Positions 37,543 through 45,971 of a stretch of 64,000 nucleotides of DNA are shown here, one piece after another. How positions within the stretch are numbered: position 1 is the stretch's first letter; each line of letters opens with the position of its first letter. The stretch comes from Candidatus Peregrinibacteria bacterium (GTDB taxonomy: Bacteria; Patescibacteriota; Gracilibacteria; UBA1369): contig OY970195.1 in the NCBI GenBank assembly GCA_963708185.1, forward strand, positions 416,001-480,000, written 5' to 3'. The position numbers and the translations under genes are program-made. The notes under the pieces are model-generated. The model worked only from the letters and a program-made list of their open reading frames with translations. It ran no database searches and was not told where the DNA came from.

Positions 37543-39180
37543 ATGTCTCAACCGGGTGAAACCCCCAAACCGTTAGAAGCTTCTCTTACAAGAGAGGTCG
37601 TGCATCGCCACGCACTTGAATTCAAGCCCTCGTTTGCGTTTCTGCAAAAACAAAAAGAGATCCAGTCCATAGCCATCAACCGCGAATTGGAGGAGCATAA
37701 ACTGAAGCTGGAGGAGGGAAGCGATCTTCTTTCCCTCAGGGTCCAGGCTGCGACGATCGGTTCGGAAAAAGACGTGAACCAGCAACTGGATGATGAAAGC
37801 TGTTGTTTGAACGATGAGGAGAAAAAGGCTTATTGCGAGACCGTTGATCAGTGCGTGGATGAACAGGGGACCACCGAGGATGATAAAGAGGCTCTTCGAA
37901 GAACGATGACGGAGGTCATCTTCAAACCCCGGGTCTTTCTTGCACACTATAAACACTGGCGGAAAAATTGGGATTCAGATCCAAAACTCCAGGAAAAATA
38001 TCCTGATTTCCAGGATTACGTTTTTGAACGGGCGAGAGCTTTTATCAATGCGCGCCGCAATGAAATCATTGCCTCACGCTTAAGGAAATTCCAGAAGGAT
38101 TCCATGCCAAAGACTCCGACGGCCGATCAGGGAAAAGAACAACTGAAGGATATCGATCGCAAGGTGATGAGTTTTATCAGGAAGCATGAAGATGAGTTGC
38201 TCGAATATAACGATTTGGACATCAAAGACCCTAAAAGGCAGGCGCTTTCCCAGAAATTTCTTGCTGAATCAGGTTTACAGGGGGCGAAAGCCGCAGAGGC
38301 GCGGAAGCTTTTTGAAGATATCATCGGGGACATCGAAGTGGCGTTTCTGGCTCAAAGAAAATTGGTCTCAAGTTATCAGGATATGGGAGGCCTTGCCCAG
38401 GACGCCATTGATCATAACGAAGATATCGATCAAGAAAAATGGAACAAGATGCTTCAAGACGATCTTCAGAAAGATCCATATTTTAAAGAGGCCCTGGAAC
38501 AGCAACAGGCTTTTGTCTATCAAGCAAGTGCGGATGCCGCTCTCGCGACGATGCCGTTGGACTCTCCGGAATCCGTAGCCATGCAGGCAGGCGGTTTACG
38601 CATCATGGGCTATGATCCCGCAACGGACACCTACACCGTTCGCTATCCGGACAGTACACTTGAAACGAAAATGAAAATTATTCCACGTCCGGGTTCAAAG
38701 ACCTTTGATGATGCCGAGTTCGTTTTTTATGATAAATATGCCGATAAAGCCAAAGGCAACGAGGTGCATTTTAAACGCGATAACTTGCGGAGCGGCTGCA
38801 ACCAGATGTTTCTTGATTACCTCATGAACGACTGGATCAGACAAAACAGCATGAGTCCGGATTTCAACGTCAATGATATCCTTACCGATGATACGATGTC
38901 ACGTATGGCGGAAAGACTTTTTGACAGAAGTCTCAACGATATCGTGCTGACGAAAAACATGCGTTTTATTTTCAGCAGATTTCTGGAGGTCATGATGAAA
39001 GGAGACAACTCATCGACGAAGTACGGTGATCTCGGTTCTTTTGAAGCTCGGGTAAAAAAGATGGATACGGTTATGATGAATCCATCCTATGCGAAAAAAC
39101 TTTACAAGGAGTTTGAAAAAATCGGATCGGTGGCTTTTACGGTTTCTACTTTGTTGGAGCACATCGATTATAAGGAGTAG
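37543..39180 (+). CDS. Hypothetical 545-aa charged helical protein
   Basis: Long ORF with native-like codon usage and no recognisable motif. Confidence 0.8.
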   Translation: MSQPGETPKPLEASLTREVVHRHALEFKPSFAFLQKQKEIQSIAINRELEEHKLKLEEGSDLLSLRVQAATIGSEKDVNQQLDDESCCLNDEEKKAYCETVDQCVDEQGTTEDDKEALRRTMTEVIFKPRVFLAHYKHWRKNWDSDPKLQEKYPDFQDYVFERARAFINARRNEIIASRLRKFQKDSMPKTPTADQGKEQLKDIDRKVMSFIRKHEDELLEYNDLDIKDPKRQALSQKFLAESGLQGAKAAEARKLFEDIIGDIEVAFLAQRKLVSSYQDMGGLAQDAIDHNEDIDQEKWNKMLQDDLQKDPYFKEALEQQQAFVYQASADAALATMPLDSPESVAMQAGGLRIMGYDPATDTYTVRYPDSTLETKMKIIPRPGSKTFDDAEFVFYDKYADKAKGNEVHFKRDNLRSGCNQMFLDYLMNDWIRQNSMSPDFNVNDILTDDTMSRMAERLFDRSLNDIVLTKNMRFIFSRFLEVMMKGDNSSTKYGDLGSFEARVKKMDTVMMNPSYAKKLYKEFEKIGSVAFTVSTLLEHIDYKE

Positions 39181-39197
39181 TTCACTTCGAGCATAGG

Positions 39198-39239
39198 AAA
39201 AAGCGCCCCTGAAGTCCTATGAAGGAAGCAGCGAGGCGC
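39198..39239 (-). terminator. Intrinsic terminator of cassette B
   Basis: GCGCCTC...GGGGCGC stem followed by TTTTT; conserved in cassette A. Confidence 0.7.
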
Positions 39240-39298
39240 CGAGTTGGTGGTTATTCAATGAAGTGAAGAAAAGTGGAGATAAGAAAGCTCGGCGGGGA

Positions 39299-40050
39299 TC
39301 AGTACTGGAGCAGGAATTCCGCTCCGTTCGGGCAGGAAGACGAGAGGTTGATGTTGGGGTTGGAACCGCAAGAGATTGCGGTGTACCCAACGCTGAAGAG
39401 TTCTCCCTCCATCTGCGAGTGATCGGGAGCGGGCCCGGACTGAACGTCGGGGCGCACTTTTTCGAACACGAGACGGGGTAGGAACCGAGCGAGCTTGCCT
39501 GGGATGCGTTGTTGTTGGGAGGGTCACCGACCCATACCATCACGACGCTTCCCGCGATGGGGTGGGTGTAGAACGGTTGGGTACCGTCCTGACACGTCGA
39601 GTCGTCGGGCGACGACTCCATGTTGTAAGTCGTCCCCAACTTGTTGAGGATGACCTTGTAGCACGAGTTCGTGCACTTGAAGGTGACCGCGTTGGGCTGC
39701 GGCGGGTCGTTGCAGAGAGGGGGAGCTCCACCGGAACCACCCGTACCGCCCATACCGCCAGAGCCGCCCATGCCGCCACCGCCGGTGGAGCTGGTTGCTC
39801 CGCCCATGCCGCCAGAACCGCCCTGGCCGCCTGAAGAGCTCGTCGAGCCCCCCATGCCGCCGGAGCCGCCCTGACTGGAACTGCTGGTGGTCTTGCCACC
39901 TCCAGTATCAGAGGTGGACATTCCTCCGGAACCACCTCCGCCTTGGTTGCAGATGTCCGGACAGGTGCCGTAGGAATCCAGGACGCATGCCTGGAGGACG
40001 AAGATCCCCATGCAGGGGAGCGACGTCATCAGTAAACTTTTCAGATGCAT
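39299..40050 (-). CDS. Gly/Ser-rich putative lipoprotein with an 8-Cys C-terminal domain, copy B (frameshift near 39434)
   Basis: SD GGGAGG; lipobox-like VLQAC; GGSGGMGG linker; restoring one G (present in copy A) gives ...APDHSQMEGELF...GAEFLLQY*. Confidence 0.82.
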
Positions 40051-40117
40051 ATGACCTCCCGGGAGAAGAAAGTGCCTCCCTTGGAAATTTCGTAACTTCA
40101 TTGATGTCAAACACCAG

Positions 40118-40180
40118 TCTTTTTGTTTGTAAACCGTCAGAAACTCCTTTAGGTGTTTGCGGTTCACAAAAGCAAAAAGA
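40118..40180 (-). other. Conserved 5' leader hairpin, cassette B
   Basis: TCTTTTTG/CAAAAAGA and TTTGTGAACCG/CGGTTTACAAA stems. Confidence 0.65.
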
Positions 40181-40187
40181 GCGTTTA

Positions 40188-40216
40188 ATTATGGTGTAAA
40201 AGTGATAAAAAGTCAA
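40188..40216 (-). promoter_or_regulatory. sigma70 promoter TTGACT-N17-CATAAT
   Basis: Near-consensus boxes with 17-nt spacer. Confidence 0.72.
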
Positions 40217-40224
40217 TACATAGG

Positions 40225-40264
40225 AAAAAGCGCCCAGAAGTCCTGGTAAGGAAGCAGCGGGCGC
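40225..40264 (-). terminator. Intrinsic terminator of cassette A
   Basis: GCGCCC...GGGCGC stem followed by TTTTT. Confidence 0.7.
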
Positions 40265-40319
40265 CGGGTTGATGGTTGTACAATGAAGTAGAGCTAAGGA
40301 AGTTCGTCCGGCGCGAGAC

Positions 40320-41094
40320 CTAGTACTGGAGCAGGAAATCCGCTCCATGGGTGCAGGAAGGTGCCGAGAGGTTGATGTTGGGATTGGAACCGCACCCGAT
40401 GGTGTTGTATCCGGACGTGAAGAGTTCCGCTTCCATCTGCGAGTGATCGGGAGCGGGCCCCGGATTGAACGTCGGGGCGCACTTGACCGAACACGAGAGA
40501 GGGAACGAACCCTGGGAAACCGCCTGGATATTGTTGTTGTTCGCGGGGTCGTTGACCCACGCCATGACAACACTCCCGACGTTGGGGTGGGTGTAGAACG
40601 GTTGGGTACCGTCCTGGCACGTCGAGTCGTCGGGTGACGACTCCGCGTTGTTGGTCGTCCCCAACTTGTTGAGGATGACCTTGTAGCACGAGTTCGTGCA
40701 CTTGAAAGTGACCGCGTTGGGCTGCGGCGGGTCGTTGCAGAGGGGGAGCTCCACCGGAGCCGCCCATGCCGCCTGCACCACCCTGACCACTTGAACCGCC
40801 CATGCCGCCGGAACCCGCAGTTCCACCGGTGCCCGTTGCACCAGCTTCACCGCCCGCTCCAGCAGAGCCGCCTTGGCCGCCCATGCCGCCGAAACCCGCA
40901 GTTCCACCGGTGCCCGTTGCACCAGCTTCGCCACCGGTTCCTGCAGAGCCGCCTTGGCCGTCGCTTCCGGCCTGACCGCTCGAACCGCCGGAACCTCCGG
41001 GGCCGAACAGCGGGTCCGAATTCAGACCGCATCCCCCCGAGTAGAGGGCGGCGGCCAGGATCATCGGACAATACATGAATACCGTGAGACGCAT
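40320..41094 (-). CDS. Gly-rich putative lipoprotein with an 8-Cys C-terminal domain, copy A (2-nt frameshift near 40740)
   Basis: SD AAGGAGGAG; signal ending SGGC; Gly linker; lacks one CT unit relative to copy B at GAPPL|CNDPP; ends GADFLLQY*. Confidence 0.82.
40797..40960 (-). repeat. Two 81-nt direct repeats encoding GQGGSAG.GGEAGATGTGGTAG.GGMG
   Basis: CATGCCGCCG at 40801 and 40882; near-identical units. Confidence 0.85.
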
Positions 41095-41175
41095 CAGTTT
41101 ACTCCTCCTTTTATAGGTTATGTCCTTCTAAATGTTGAGGACAGTTTCGTTTACTTCATTGATTTCAAACATCAG

Positions 41176-41237
41176 TCTTTTCGTTTGTAGGCCGTCAAAA
41201 CTCCTGTCTATATTTGCGGCTCACAAAAGCAAAAAGA
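41176..41237 (-). other. Conserved 5' leader hairpin, cassette A
   Basis: Same stems as cassette B, with one A-U to G-C compensatory change and one mismatch. Confidence 0.62.
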
Positions 41238-41244
41238 GCAGTTT

Positions 41245-41273
41245 ATTATTATACAAAATTGCAATTAAGTCAA
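41245..41273 (-). promoter_or_regulatory. Putative sigma70 promoter TTGACT...TATAATAAT
   Basis: Homologous position to the copy B promoter; spacer is 14 nt to TATAAT or 17 nt to AATAAT. Confidence 0.55.
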
Positions 41274-41579
41274 TAGCTCCAATTTTTATTTTGTTTGAAG
41301 GTAAAGAAGAAGAAAGTGGAATGAAGTTAGAATGCAAAAAATATTCATGAAAAGAGAGGAGGGGGACAGTCTAAAGGTATTTGGTCCTCTATCTTTTATT
41401 TTGCACAATATATCTTGTGCAAATATTAAACTTATTCTTGCTTCAAAAAGTGGGTTTTTTTCAGGTTTATCGTTGATATGTGGCTTCTCGACTGGCTTTA
41501 CTAAAAACTTTCGATTTTAGCCGTTTTAATATCTTTTTTGGGTTTTGATACCTTTGAATAAATTTTTCGAAATGTGTTT

Positions 41580-43907
41580 TTAGCGTTTGAAACGATTTTT
41601 ACCGATTTCGATAATTTTTTCGAGCAGTTGTCTCGGACTGAGAGGTTTTGGTAAAGATGCCGCTTGCTGGAAGAAAGTCGTTGAAGGCGTGAGTGCCGGT
41701 AAGGTATTTGCTTCTATAATGATCAATTCACCGGTTTTACGGTTCATAAAACAGTCCATACGGGTATAACCCTCGATATCCAAGGCGTCGGCAACCTTTT
41801 TTAATCGTTGTCTGACTTTTTTCAAGACCGTGCGACTCACGAATTTTTCTGGAGGAGGGACAAGATTGATGCCGGTACCGCCCATGAATTTTTCTTCAAG
41901 ACTGAGCGTTTCGCCCTTGGCGATGGTCTGGCTTGGAGAAAGGACGGTCAATTTGCCTTTCGGACCGAGAAAACCGACGGTCATTTCGATCAATCCGCTG
42001 CGGTTTTCCCAATGAATGGTAAGATTTTCGAGTGTTACTTTGTCACAGACAATAAAGTTTTCGATGAGTATTTCATTGAGTTTTTTTTCTGGAAGATCGA
42101 TTTGTCCGTGGAACGGATGAATTGCCCGTTCCGGAATGCAGGGGTTGCCGCTGCGAAAATATTGAATAGCTTTTTTGAACTCGTTTTCGTTGTTGATGCG
42201 GATAACCCCGGCGGAACAACCGTCACCTCTCGGTTTCAAGATAATTGACTTGTTGAATTTTAATTCTTTGAGTTTTTTCCAGGTTTTCTGCGGATTTTCG
42301 TCGATAGGCATCAAATATTTTTTTGCGATACCGACTCCAGGAATTTTGGCTTGTTCAATCCTCTGCCCCGTGGCGAATTTATCCATACAGAGCATGGAGC
42401 AGCCCGTACCGGGACCGTTATAGGGAAGGCGGAGGCGGTCGAGAAGATTTTGCATGGTGCCGTTTTCCCCCGCTCCCCCATGCAGCCCGAGAAACAGAAA
42501 TTTGTAATCTTTTGAAATAGATTCAATGGATGTCTGACGCGGAATAAAAATGGGCTCCTTCACGTTTTTTTTGTCGATGACGAGTCCGGCAAGAATGTGG
42601 TCGGCCTCTTTTTCGAGCCTTTCGAAATAATTGGAGTTCTTGAACAGTTTGATCTTTTCTTCGATCTCTTCGACGGTGTGTTGAAGACACAGAAATTGCG
42701 GTATATAAAAGATTTTTTGATCGAACGTCAGAAAAAGAGGCACCGGACTGTATTTTTTACTTAACTTGAGTTTCATCCAGACATTGGTTCCACTCATCAC
42801 AGAAACCTGCCGTTCTGCGGTGTTTCCTCCGAAAATTACCGGAATTTCTTCTTTTTTTTCATCGTCAGGTCCGGATTTTCCGACAGTTTTATTGATGATG
42901 TAGTCGAGCAGCTGGCGATGACTTAATCCCAATAATGCGGCCTGCTGGAAAAGGAAACTGTTCTGCTCCATACCGCTGATGGCGTTGATGTCGCTGAACC
43001 AGATCGATCCGTCATCGAGCACCCAGCCGTCAAGACGGCCGAAATCGTTCATGCCCAGGCATTTGAAGGCGTGAGCCGCCTGTACGCGGATTTTTTCGGT
43101 GGTTTTCTCGTCAAAGCGCGCAGGGGTGTGATATCGGGTTTCAGCAGTTGGAAGATATTTCTTGCGATAGTCGAAAAATCTGTCTTTCTTCAGTTCGATT
43201 TCCGTCGGCATCAATGCCACTGCGTCTCCTCCGGCATTTTCCAGCACAATAATAGTGAATTCCCTGCCGCTGACTTCAGGCTCAATGATGGCTTTATCTT
43301 CGTGTTTAAAAACCTCAACCAGTTTGTCTTTCAGTTCTTTGGGGTCACGGATGTACTGTACTCCGATACTCGAGCCGCCATGGAGTGGTTTTGCAACCCA
43401 TTTGCCTTTCGGAAGTTTCGGTAATTTCGCCCCTTTTTTTATTACATAGTCCTTTAGGGTGAAGAATCCGTGTTTCTTGAGGATTTCCTGGCAACGGTGT
43501 TTGTCCGACGTGTTCATGCAGGCTCTCGGACTCGAGCCGAGATAAGGAACCTCCATTTTTTCGAGCAGCGTTTGGAGCTGTCCGTCCTCTCCGAATGCTC
43601 CATGGATTGCCGGAAAAACAAGGTCGATTTTCTTAAGAAGTTTTCGCAGCTGCGCTGTAGTCAGCATCCTTTTGCTTTTTTTCAGCTTGTAATCAAAATC
43701 AAGAGGCGTGTTGGAGTAAATTTCCGTGGATTTTATCTGAAAAAACCTCAGTTTGGGATTGACGTATACAATGGTGAGTTCGTAGTTGTCCGGATCAAGA
43801 TTATCAAAGAGCGAACGCGCGGAGTTCAATGAAATTCCGCGTTCAGCCGAAGGTCCGCCGCAGATGATAGCAATTTTTTTCCTTTTTCGAGATTTTTTTT
43901 GAGGCAT
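41580..43907 (-). CDS. ddl: Tandem double-domain D-Ala-D-Ala ligase
   Basis: Two ATP-grasp Ddl units: GGPSAERGISLNSA/HGAFGEDG/GSSIGV and GGNTAERQVS/HGGAGENG/EANTLP. Confidence 0.9.
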   Translation of the reverse strand: MPQKKSRKRKKIAIICGGPSAERGISLNSARSLFDNLDPDNYELTIVYVNPKLRFFQIKSTEIYSNTPLDFDYKLKKSKRMLTTAQLRKLLKKIDLVFPAIHGAFGEDGQLQTLLEKMEVPYLGSSPRACMNTSDKHRCQEILKKHGFFTLKDYVIKKGAKLPKLPKGKWVAKPLHGGSSIGVQYIRDPKELKDKLVEVFKHEDKAIIEPEVSGREFTIIVLENAGGDAVALMPTEIELKKDRFFDYRKKYLPTAETRYHTPARFDEKTTEKIRVQAAHAFKCLGMNDFGRLDGWVLDDGSIWFSDINAISGMEQNSFLFQQAALLGLSHRQLLDYIINKTVGKSGPDDEKKEEIPVIFGGNTAERQVSVMSGTNVWMKLKLSKKYSPVPLFLTFDQKIFYIPQFLCLQHTVEEIEEKIKLFKNSNYFERLEKEADHILAGLVIDKKNVKEPIFIPRQTSIESISKDYKFLFLGLHGGAGENGTMQNLLDRLRLPYNGPGTGCSMLCMDKFATGQRIEQAKIPGVGIAKKYLMPIDENPQKTWKKLKELKFNKSIILKPRGDGCSAGVIRINNENEFKKAIQYFRSGNPCIPERAIHPFHGQIDLPEKKLNEILIENFIVCDKVTLENLTIHWENRSGLIEMTVGFLGPKGKLTVLSPSQTIAKGETLSLEEKFMGGTGINLVPPPEKFVSRTVLKKVRQRLKKVADALDIEGYTRMDCFMNRKTGELIIIEANTLPALTPSTTFFQQAASLPKPLSPRQLLEKIIEIGKNRFKR

Positions 43908-43932
43908 ATTAGCTCTTATTCTAGTGAAAAGG

Positions 43933-45971
43933 TTAGTCTTTGACAAATACCTCCTGGAGTTCGTCGATTTTCGCTTTGAGCGTGGGATACGAAACAAGTT
44001 CGGGATCTTTTTCGATGACGTTCTGCGCGGCCTGTCGGGCGAGGCTGATCGTAAAGGAGTCGCTCAGCGACGCCATTTTGAGATCGGGTATGCCGCTTTG
44101 CCTGACTCCGTAAATTTCCCCGGGGCCGCGGATCTGGAGGTCGATTTCGGCCAGTTTGAATCCGCTGGAAAAATCCACCATGGCGCGGAGTCGTTTTGTC
44201 GCCTCTTCCCCGGATTTTTTCATGAAGAGAAAACAGTAGGACTGATGTTCTCCTCTTCCGACGCGTCCCCTGAACTGATGGAGCTGCGAAAGGCCGAATC
44301 TTTCGGCGGCTTCGATGACCATGATGCTGGCGTTGGGGACGTCTATGCCGACTTCGATAACCGAGGTGGATACCAGGATGTGTATCTTGTTCTGTGAAAA
44401 GAGCGTCATAGTTTCTTCTTTGTCTTTCGGTTTCATTTTTCCGTGCAGGAGCCCGACTTTGAGTTCGGGAAAAATGTGCTCCTGAAGATATTCGTATTCC
44501 TGGATGGCGGACTTTACTTCGAGAACGTCGGATTCGTCAATCAACGGGCAGATGATGAAAGCCTGTCTTCCCTTCTTGACCTGTTCTTTGATCCATTTGT
44601 AACCGTCGAGGCGTTTTTTTTCGGGAACGATGCGCGTCTGGATCTGCTGACGTCCTTTGGGCATTTCATCGATGACGGAAAGGTCCTGGTCGCCATAGAC
44701 GGTCATGGCGAGCGTCCGAGGAATTGGCGTGGCCGAAAGACTTAGTAAATGCGGGCTTCCCTGGGACTTGAGGATGTCGCGTTGTTTCACCCCGAAGCGG
44801 TGTTGTTCATCGATGACGGCCAGGCCGAGTTTTTTGAAGCCGATGGTTTCCTGGATGAGCGCGTGCGTTCCGATGACGATATCGATTGTCCCGTTTTTCA
44901 GCTGAAGTGTGATGTCGTCTTTGATGCTTTGCGGAGTGCTTCCGGCGATGAACTGGATATTGAGACCGAACGGCTGGAGCATCTTGTAGACGGTGTGGTA
45001 GTGCTGTTTGGAAAGGATTTCGGTCGGAGCCATGAGTGCAGTTTGATAGCCGTTTTTTACGGCATCGAGCATGGCCGCAGCGGCCACGACGGTTTTTCCG
45101 GAGCCTACGTCACCCTGGAGGAGCCGCGACATGGGGTATGGTTTGTTGAGGTCGGTAAAAATTTCTTCGATGGCACGGAGCTGGGCTCCGGTCAGTTCAA
45201 AAGGAAGTTGCTTGAAGAATTTTTCAACCTCGGGAAGGCGCGGTAACGGTTTTTGTTCATGGACGGCCACGTTCTGCCAGCGCCATTTTTTCTGGAGCGC
45301 CTTGACCTGGAGCAGGAACAATTCGTCGAAACTGAGGCGTTTTTTGGCTTCTTCCAGGGTTTGTTCGTCCGTGGGAAAGTGGACTTCAGCGACGGCCTGC
45401 TGATAGTTCATCAATTTGTATTCCTTGATGATTTCAGGAGGCATGTAGTCCTTGAAATGTTTGACCCAGTCCTTGATGAGCGGCTGGATTTTTTCGCGCA
45501 GCCACTTGGAACTCAGGCCTGCGGTTTCGTGATAGACCGGAACGATGCGGCCCACGTGTGTCTGCTCTTTTTTTTGTTCTTCGAACGAGGGCTCTGGAGC
45601 GTCATTTTCCCCAGGTTGAATTTTGCTTTTCCGGAGAGGATGATCTCCTGGCCGTTCTTGAGGACGCGTTTGAGGTAGGGCTGGTTGAACCAGATGACTT
45701 CGACCGAACCGGTGTCGTCGCTCAAAAGCGCTTTGGTCAGATGTTTGCCGTTCTTGGTCCTTTTGTGGAAAATGTTGCTGAGCGTTCCGATAACGTTGTT
45801 GATTTCATCTGTTTTGAGATCGCTGATGTTGGTGTAGGCGCTTTTGTCGACGTAGGTCCGCGGAAAATACAGGACGAGATCGCGTACGGTCTTGATCCCC
45901 AGTTCCTGGAGTTTCACCGCGTGTTCCTTGTTGGTGCGGAGGACTTGTTGTAGAGGAGATTTGAGGCTCAT
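43933..45971 (-). CDS. recG: ATP-dependent DNA helicase RecG (frameshift near 45590)
   Basis: N-terminal wedge domain plus QGDVGSGKT, DEQHRFGV, SATPIPRTL, QLHQFRGRVGR; one C missing in a C-run. Confidence 0.96.

Follow-up and report, generated by a model that had tools for sequence, protein, structure and literature searches.

Candidate long-range pairing between leader and trailer segments in a family of glycine-rich lipoprotein cassettes from an uncultured bacterial lineage

To our knowledge, only a few intramolecular interactions between the 5′ untranslated region (UTR) and the 3′ UTR of bacterial mRNAs are known, namely those of hbs, icaR, and RNAIII/hld. A related arrangement is found in 16S and 23S rRNAs, which are flanked by leader–trailer processing stems cut by RNase III. 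Compensatory mutants confirmed the hbs interaction of Bacillus subtilis, which holds back cleavage by RNase Y (Braun, Durand and Condon 2017, PMC5737220); as described there, the duplex is a single perfect 14-bp helix in one gene, with an energy of −19 kcal/mol. According to a review (PMC7821165), the hbs interaction is unconserved among close relatives, and the same is said of known functional 3′ UTRs generally. That review also describes icaR of Staphylococcus aureus, in which translation is blocked by pairing between the Shine-Dalgarno sequence and a UCCCC motif of the 3′ UTR (Ruiz de los Mozos 2013, in PMC7821165), and RNAIII/hld of the same species, in which long-range 5′–3′ pairing within one transcript has been probed (PMC7821165).

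Here we describe a candidate helix of this kind in a window of 64,000 nucleotides, the whole stretch of DNA analyzed, in which two tandem minus-strand cassettes (copies A and B) each encode a Gly-rich lipoprotein. In copy A, a sigma-70-like promoter (41245..41273, minus strand; TTGACT, 17 nt, AATAAT; 10 of 12 matches) lies upstream of the leader arm, which places that arm inside the predicted transcript. The arm itself, UGAUG-u-UUG-aaau-CAAUGAAGUA (41152..41174, minus strand), is seen directly in the sequence, and its UUGAAA motif starts 74 nt upstream of the ATG. Beyond the open reading frame (ORF; 40320..41094, minus strand), a trailer arm (40270..40290, minus strand) ends 4 nt upstream of a terminator-like hairpin with a U run (40225..40265, minus strand; −16.8 kcal/mol). 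Copy B repeats this layout: a sigma-70-like promoter (40188..40216, minus strand; TTGACT, 17 nt, CATAAT; 10 of 12 matches), a leader arm likewise seen directly, UGGUG-u-UUG-aca-UCAAUGAAGU (40095..40116, minus strand), whose UUGACA motif starts 60 nt upstream of the ATG, the lipoprotein ORF (39299..40050, minus strand), a trailer arm (39245..39264, minus strand) ending 4 nt upstream of the hairpin, and the terminator-like hairpin with its U run (39198..39240, minus strand; −18.0 kcal/mol). In both window copies and in eight related cassettes, a promoter-like site precedes the two arms and a terminator-like hairpin follows them.

Both window ORFs are frameshifted. The copy A frameshift lies in a CT run near 40737–40746, which is 2 nt short relative to copy B and intact homologues, so that the C-terminal domain past this point runs in a different frame to the TAG at 40322–40320. 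Copy B carries its frameshift in a G run near 39434–39436, 1 nt short relative to copy A and intact homologues, and its homologous end is the TGA at 39301–39299. Given that two of the four G003 copies are frameshifted as well as both window copies, present-day function in the source genome is uncertain.

A sequence-only reading of this stretch had reported that leader and trailer segments of each copy pair, with a compensatory change between the copies. On re-reading, the four arm segments matched exactly on the minus strand, as did the outer 5-bp helix, UGGUG:CACCA in copy B versus UGAUG:CAUCA in copy A, a G-C to A-U change on both sides at a distance of ~850 nt. A repeat search recovered the 10-bp inner helix as an inverted repeat, and RNAfold placed the helix in the minimum free energy (MFE) and centroid structures of the 951-nt copy B transcript. 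In full-length folds, 18 nt of the copy A leader arm and 21 nt of the copy B leader arm were paired with P > 0.5, those of copy A with the trailer arm. When narrow windows were anchored on the arms, the observed duplex energy was reached by 0 of 1,000 shuffles for copy A and 1 of 1,000 for copy B. With wide windows (the 143-nt leader against the whole trailer), shuffles did as well in 0 of 200 cases for copy B and 22 of 200 for copy A. Chance complementarity of such size is common as well. The two copies alone would thus be weak evidence, and it is the related cassettes that carry the support.

The long-leader subfamily forms a small sample of 11 cassettes from four genomes of one genus, which are paralogues sharing ancestry. 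In 10 of the 11, the leader arm surrounds the conserved UUGACA motif and has a complementary partner, the trailer arm, beside the terminator. Among these 10, the UUGACA-type leader anchor is present in nine (G4_C7 has UUAGCA), and the motif starts 36–74 nt upstream of the start codon in nine (26 nt in G3_4). The trailer arm ends 0–4 nt upstream of the hairpin in every case, with hairpin energies of −13.4 to −24.1 kcal/mol. Duplex energies span −14.1 to −27.3 kcal/mol. The helices contain bulges and measure 14–27 bp, roughly half of them being at least 20 bp long. The strongest helix belongs to a stand-alone gene, G4_C7 (27 bp, −27.3 kcal/mol, equaled by 0 of 1,000 shuffles); G3_4 and G0_B form 26 and 22 bp, respectively, and the helices of G2_3, G2_2, G3_2, and G2_4 are interrupted and 14–18 bp long. 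In anchored windows, three of the 10 cassettes were individually non-significant, their energies being matched by 57, 85, and 104 of 1,000 shuffles. The 11th cassette, G3_1, had no helix (35 of 100 shuffles did equally well), and the helix of G3_3 contains two uncompensated U-U mismatches.

With wide UTR windows (143-nt leader against whole trailer), only three of the 10 cassettes exceeded shuffles: G0_B, G4_C7, and G3_2. All-against-all duplex and local-alignment tests on 270 × 140 nt windows were uninformative, as RNAduplex chained long loops and the windows also took in the terminator of the neighboring cassette. In all 10 cassettes, partition-function folds of the entire 911–1,048-nt transcripts gave a pairing probability above 0.5 between the two arms for 8–25 nt of the leader arm, and the leader–trailer pairing was part of the MFE structure in nine. 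Shuffling the trailer arm at its own position left such pairing in 5 of 20 folds; the base composition of the arms and neighboring pairs therefore contribute to these values. In the search for further homologues, a genome-collection scan returned the G003 contig alone, and a metagenome scan returned one 1,136-nt contig (L033) with a homologous leader followed by two genes, the trailer of which is not visible because the contig contains no terminator. Rfam searches of positions 38900–41600 on both strands gave three matches with E values of 3.8–9.9, far under the gathering scores. By eye, the UUGACA motif was also rejected as an internal −35 promoter element, as no cassette showed a consistent −10 box at 16–18 nt.

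The complementarity is specific to the individual cassettes. Summed over the cognate arm pairs, the duplex energy was −201.3, compared with a mean of −130.2 (sd 14.6) for permuted pairs, and 0 of 100,000 permutations reached the cognate sum. The cognate partner was the best in its row for seven of 10 cassettes and the best in its column for six. This signal disappeared when the trailer was swapped for the first 20 nt past the stop codon (10,177 of 20,000 permutations, N = 8) or for sequence past the terminator (16,653 of 20,000, N = 4), and nearly disappeared when the leader window was moved 40 nt upstream (794 of 20,000). Three clean two-sided changes were found in all: the G-C to A-U change between copies A and B, and two in the G002/G004 group (C-G to U-A and G-C to A-U). 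Pair counts were made on anchor-registered segments, as whole-cassette MAFFT alignments registered the leader motif, though not the trailer arms between groups. In G3_2, G3_4, and G4_C7, the arm sequences are mostly different and complementarity is kept. The arms thus stay complementary across paralogues that differ in arm sequence.

The core proposal of the sequence-only reading, a bulged closing stem under selection, is supported by the cassette-specific complementarity, the anchor in nine of 10 cassettes, the trailer abutting the terminator in all 10, and the three two-sided changes. The missing helix of G3_1, the mismatches of G3_3, and the three individually non-significant cassettes count against the pairing. 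On the opposite view, the complementarity has no function: it would descend from an ancestral cassette and persist in part by chance, and the few double changes would be coincidental. Such an origin would account for the decay of pairing in the broken copies G3_1 and G3_3, and it fits the small number of independent lineages and the unremarkable standing of single-cassette helices in wide-window and genome-wide scans. In the genome-wide scan, the 5′ and 3′ flanks of 1,196 crude ORFs scored the same in cognate and random pairs (means of 24.22 and 24.21), although the crude gene calls misplace the boundaries of two frameshifted cassettes; complementarity of comparable size was common by chance, and the top scores were chance-like. 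Since the two distributions coincide, the helix is not a general feature of the source genome. Simple inheritance is nevertheless difficult to reconcile with arms that have strongly diverged between groups while retaining cognate complementarity at a level that the permutations never reached, with the clean two-sided changes, or with the G4_C7 helix that none of its shuffles equaled, and we consider an absence of function improbable.

Whether the arms act as sense RNA is a separate question. The duplex was better on the sense strand in five of the 10 cassettes and on the antisense strand in the other five, and a wobble-pair test found no asymmetry between strands, with 13 wobbles among 195 bp for sense and 16 among 199 bp for antisense. 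Sequence alone cannot show whether the arms act in sense RNA or at the DNA or antisense level. The arms could, for instance, be inverted repeats that flip the ORF relative to its promoter (phase variation) or could structure an RNA from the opposite strand. The complementarity is nearly all Watson-Crick and equal on both strands, and variable surface-protein genes in tandem arrays with frequent frameshifts are typical of contingency loci. Weak promoter-like matches also occur on the opposite strand at 40163–40192 and 41220–41249, but these match at nine of 12 positions and lie within the AT-rich promoter region. Inversion is difficult to support on several grounds. Because the arms differ between cassettes of one genome, one site-specific recombinase could not recognize them all. 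The longest perfect runs, 9–10 bp with bulges, are too short for homologous inversion. No recombinase was present among the five flanking ORFs, and each of the 10 cassettes faces its promoter in the ON orientation. The locus does not resemble an inverton. On balance, a role as DNA or antisense RNA seems quite improbable.

If the helix forms in the mRNA, translational control is one conceivable outcome: the ribosome-binding site (RBS) could be hidden or freed once the 3′ UTR has been made, or the stop codon could be brought to the start for ribosome re-use. Long-range RBS pairing is described as functional in vivo in B. subtilis (PMC12697547). Within the present family, the inner helix of G3_4 covers the Shine-Dalgarno region, in keeping with its short motif-to-start distance, and the optimal wide-window duplex extends toward the start codon in G3_2, G2_4, and G4_C2. 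In seven of the 10, however, the extended pairing did not outperform shuffles. Comparing the accessibility predicted for the RBS in the presence and absence of the trailer arm gave no consistent change (lower in seven of 10, higher in three). The resemblance to icaR is accordingly limited. Both cases involve intramolecular pairing of 3′ and 5′ UTRs, predicted here, and a double-stranded target with consequences for the mRNA (PMC7821165), but the arm here starts 36–74 nt upstream of the start codon in nine of 10 cassettes, and G3_4 is the single cassette in which it overlaps the Shine-Dalgarno sequence. We regard control of translation through this pairing as very unlikely.

The architecture is closest to that of hbs. 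In both, the arms lie in the 5′ and 3′ UTRs with the 3′ arm directly upstream of the terminator, here as predicted from sequence, and the duplex energies are similar (−19 kcal/mol for hbs, −14 to −27 kcal/mol here; PMC5737220). The source genome also encodes the relevant decay enzymes: RNase J and RNase Y (one copy over the family cut-off and one RNase Y-like paralogue under it) are present, and a search for RNase E/G found none in this genome, which is 99% complete. A host decay machinery based on RNase Y and RNase J would resemble that of hbs, a likeness that concerns gene presence. Unlike hbs, the helix here is interrupted, carries a conserved UUGACA-type motif, and is found repeatedly, with covarying arms, among paralogous lipoprotein genes of an uncultured lineage with small genomes. 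It likewise differs from the RNAIII/hld pairing, which as presented in the review spans 7 nt in a regulatory RNA, without family-wide covariation (PMC7821165).

We therefore favor, with a probability of roughly 40%, a long-range clamp of the hbs type that would control mRNA lifetime by restricting nuclease access. Each cassette would form its own transcription unit, comprising a promoter, a leader of ~130–145 nt, the lipoprotein ORF, a 3′ UTR of 54–58 nt, and a hairpin as terminator. After transcription of the 3′ UTR, the final ~20–30 nt of this region would pair with the leader segment centered on the conserved GNUGYUUGACA-type motif. The resulting interrupted helix of 14–27 bp would loop out the whole ORF and stack beside the terminator hairpin, where it could limit access of an endonuclease such as RNase Y to the leader as well as attack from the 3′ end. 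Limited access of this kind would in turn set the lifetime of the surface-protein mRNA. Given that the leader arm lies 60–80 nt from the predicted 5′ end, the 5′ terminus itself would be unprotected. That the sense mRNA pairs in this way in vivo, and that ribonuclease access is what the pairing affects, is our inference.

The sequence-only reading had likened the helix to rRNA processing stems and suggested a possible signal for processing, circularization, or export. As in those stems, a long RNA would be enclosed by pairing of the segments that flank it, but rRNA stems are longer and surround a non-coding RNA that is part of a polycistronic precursor, whereas here a protein-coding ORF is enclosed within its own promoter–terminator unit. 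By analogy, RNase III could cut both arms and remove the first 60–80 nt together with the terminator hairpin, leaving an mRNA with paired ends or initiating its decay. An RNase III gene over the family cut-off is present in the source genome, several helices (those of G0_B, G3_4, and G4_C7) may, with their internal loops, reach approximately the two turns expected for RNase III, and the icaR duplex between 5′ and 3′ UTRs is described as cut by RNase III (PMC7821165). Against this, four helices are short and interrupted, and it is in hbs that a 3′ arm directly against the terminator has been described, with protection from RNase Y as its effect (PMC5737220). Cleavage by RNase III seems rather improbable, and an rRNA-type RNase III stem fits the architecture no better than the nuclease-protection clamp does. 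A further reading treats the helix with its conserved UUGACA-type internal loop as a dedicated closing module for a family of surface-protein mRNAs, one that could form only after transcription has arrived at the terminator. Recognition by a nuclease or binding protein would follow, trimming the RNA to base-paired or joined ends, such that only complete transcripts become stable, translatable closed-loop mRNAs. We give this scheme a slim chance of being correct.

The class represented by hbs is already known, and it is conservation with covariation that is unusual here. If the pairing is real, it would constitute an hbs-like clamp maintained by covariation through an entire paralogous gene family. 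The host lineage consists of uncultured bacteria with small genomes, in which post-transcriptional control is essentially unstudied. The arms, at ~25 nt each, also make a compact and transferable test system for nuclease clamps.

The gene family extends beyond the long-leader cassettes. A second subfamily, with a short leader and a long N-terminal region, comprises G0_c1-3, G0_1175, G2_1, G2_far, G1_C162, G4_C2b, G4_C5, G3_C5, and G3_C13. The motif was absent from this subfamily and from an ~800-aa paralogue, and the leader–trailer signal was absent in the seven tested. Fold prediction for the C-terminal domain gave a confident beta-sandwich model with generic matches only, and Foldseek returned no match to this model at E ≤ 0.001. 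The best VIA-align match was the C-terminal beta-sandwich of a glycosidase (Z = 6.3).

Copies A and B are one cassette present twice in tandem on the minus strand of the window (~41290..40200 and ~40235..39170, respectively), with 82% identity by column. Each has a sigma-70-like promoter with 10/12 matches (minus strand, 41273..41245 in copy A and 40216..40188 in copy B), a leader of roughly 130-145 nt, and an ATG (minus strand, 41094 and 40050) preceded by a strong Shine-Dalgarno sequence. Both ORFs run from a signal peptide with a lipobox-like cysteine through a Gly-rich low-complexity stretch to a conserved, cysteine-containing C-terminal domain of ~125-140 aa. A 54- or 58-nt 3' UTR then leads to a GC-rich, terminator-like hairpin and U run (-16.8 kcal/mol in copy A, -18.0 in copy B). 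Each copy is frameshifted when compared with the other and with intact homologues, through a CT run short by 2 nt in copy A (near 40737-40746, minus) and a G run short by 1 nt in copy B (near 39434-39436, minus). Two of the four cassettes of the same-genus genome G003 are also broken (contig L010, 5503-6352 and 7710-8792). These frameshifts could reflect decay, short-repeat phase variation, or assembly errors. Gracilibacteria are known to read UGA as glycine, and copy B stops at a TGA (39301-39299) where homologues have TAG. Given this stop, the absence of tRNA-Gly(UCA) among the 45 tRNAs of the window's genome (1.44 Mb, single contig), and long ORFs that are open under table 11, this genome reads the standard code.

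Inside each predicted transcript, a leader arm 60-74 nt upstream of the start codon is complementary to a trailer arm that abuts the terminator, ending 4 nt before the hairpin. The four segments lie precisely where the sequence-only reading placed them (minus strand; leader and trailer arms at 41152-41174 and 40270-40290 in copy A, 40095-40116 and 39245-39264 in copy B). The two-sided G-C to A-U change that it called compensatory is borne out, with outer 5 bp of UGGUG:CACCA in copy B and UGAUG:CAUCA in copy A. The next 3 bp go from G-C in copy A to G-U in copy B, and the 10-bp inner helix has the same sequence in both. When the whole 951-nt copy B transcript was folded with RNAfold, the MFE and centroid structures both contained the helix.

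Related cassettes allowed a broader comparison. Of the 11 cassettes that make up the long-leader subfamily, two lie in the window and four are arrayed in tandem at the syntenic G003 locus (L010). G002 contributes three of its four tandem genes (L011), and G004 has two cassettes (L014 and L018). The conserved UUGACA-type leader motif is absent from a second subfamily, with short leaders and long N-terminal regions, and from a third of ~800-aa proteins. Arm segments were chosen independently of complementarity, as the 38 nt around the leader's last TTGA[AC]A (TTAGCA in cassette G4_C7) and the final 34 nt ahead of the terminator hairpin. For the 10 cassettes with both landmarks, cognate duplex energies ranged from -14.1 to -27.3 kcal/mol. 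Among 1000 shuffles each, 0, 1, 57, 5, 7, 13, 104, 11, 85, and 0 matched the observed energy; three of the ten cassettes are individually not significant. In 7 rows and 6 columns of the ten-by-ten comparison, the cognate partner ranked first, and the summed cognate diagonal (-201.3, vs a permuted-partner mean of -130.2, sd 14.6) was reached in 0 of 100,000 permutations. In slid controls, the corresponding counts were 10,177/20,000 with the first 20 nt past the stop codon as trailer (N=8), 16,653/20,000 with sequence past the terminator (N=4), and 794/20,000, a weak residue, with the leader window moved 40 nt upstream.

Pair counts on anchor-registered segments of the G002/G004 group revealed one pair that changes from C-G to U-A and a second that changes from G-C to A-U, along with two one-sided G-U changes. 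The arms of G3_2, G3_4, and G4_C7 are largely different in sequence and keep their complementarity. When the 911-1048-nt transcripts were folded by partition function, all ten cassettes had 8-25 leader-arm nt that paired with the trailer arm at P>0.5, and the pairing was in the MFE of nine. After in-place shuffling of the trailer arm, done twice per cassette, 7-25 nt paired in this way in 5 of 20 folds and none in the other 15. The observation is confirmed, and the interpretation that selection keeps a closing stem is partly supported: cognate complementarity persists across cassettes with different arms, in evidence drawn from four related genomes. The eleventh cassette, G3_1, which has a motif variant and a broken gene, forms no helix (35/100 shuffles equally good), and G3_3, also a broken gene, has two U-U mismatches without compensation. 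With wide windows, only 3/10 cassettes stand out. In a crude genome-wide scan, flank complementarity of this size was common by chance and was not a general property of genes in the window's genome.

The strand on which the arms act cannot be read from the sequence: five cassettes have their better duplex on the sense strand and the other five on the antisense strand, with wobble pairs at 13/195 and 16/199, respectively. A switch inverting the DNA between the arms is unlikely, because the arms differ between cassettes, the longest perfect runs are 9-10 bp, and all ten cassettes face their promoters. A translational switch is not supported, as the core arm lies far upstream of the RBS in 9/10 cassettes and predicted changes in RBS accessibility are inconsistent.

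The nearest known parallels are hbs, icaR, and RNAIII/hld, single-gene cases that a review describes as not conserved among relatives (PMC7821165). In Bacillus subtilis hbs mRNA, 14 nt of the 5' UTR form a duplex of -19 kcal/mol with sequence immediately ahead of the terminator. This pairing, verified with compensatory mutants, restrains leader cleavage by RNase Y and the 3' decay pathway (PMC5737220). The cassettes share the arm layout, including a 3' arm abutting the terminator. They go beyond hbs in that the predicted pairing is conserved, with covariation, across the family and its interrupted helix carries a conserved motif. Among ribonucleases, the window's genome has genes for RNase J and RNase III; RNase E/G was not found in it. 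Two RNase Y-like genes are present (G000:C1:253084-254586 and 1196606-1198114), with scores of 605.8 and 419.4 bits, one above and one below the family cut-off of 454.35. RNases Y, J, and III with no RNase E/G found point to decay machinery of the Bacillus type. Based on this machinery and the hbs-like arm arrangement, we favor a helix that would clamp the mRNA against nuclease access and may work like the hbs interaction. The main rival is that RNase III cuts through the helix, with which helix lengths of 14-27 bp are compatible. The helix matched no Rfam family, and a limited, general literature search that included the review (PMC7821165) found no conserved clamp of this kind in print.

Other leader features were observed. 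The copy B leader arm contains an AUG (40096-40101, minus) in frame with the main ORF, and a start there would lengthen the protein by 17 residues. In copy A, the codons after this AUG are AAG UAA. The AUG has no Shine-Dalgarno sequence ahead of it. Upstream of the arm, the leader 5' part has conserved blocks without Rfam matches (40120-40181 and 41178-41238, minus; metagenome contig L033, 60-150): a UUUGUGARCCGCAAA-like block is confined to copies A and B, and a CUGACGG-like block occurs in A, B, and L033. On L033, the homologous leader is present and no trailer is visible. In this part of the contig (924-1136), a second lipoprotein gene follows that cassette after 57 nt with no terminator between, and any closing arm would have to span a two-gene operon.

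The secreted/lipoprotein family is genus-restricted and often in tandem arrays, with members at 39299-41094 in the window, elsewhere in its genome (G000:C1:178020-180187, 576551-576916, and 1175118-1175471), and at L010, L011, L014, L018, L022, L026, L028, and L030. A single-protein query found the C-terminal domain in 4/36 genomes of the taxonomic family, all of the window's genus; a profile search found it in 5/5 genus genomes. The domain has no Pfam family and is predicted to form a conserved beta-sandwich of ~125 aa with four invariant cysteines (AF2 pLDDT 84.5; fold matches generic only), preceded by hypervariable, low-complexity linkers that are Gly-rich or Asp/Ala-rich. Flanking genes encode a Y-family polymerase, an S24 peptidase, a 545-aa protein, a doubled D-Ala-D-Ala ligase, and RecG, with no recombinase among those flanking the window cassettes. 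The 545-aa protein (37543-39180, plus; L010 2833-4464) has no Pfam family, is conserved and syntenic in G003, and directly adjoins the cassette array in both genomes. The ligase gene (41580-43997, minus) is an 805-aa ORF in which two complete modules are fused, with two N-terminal and two C-terminal Pfam stretches.
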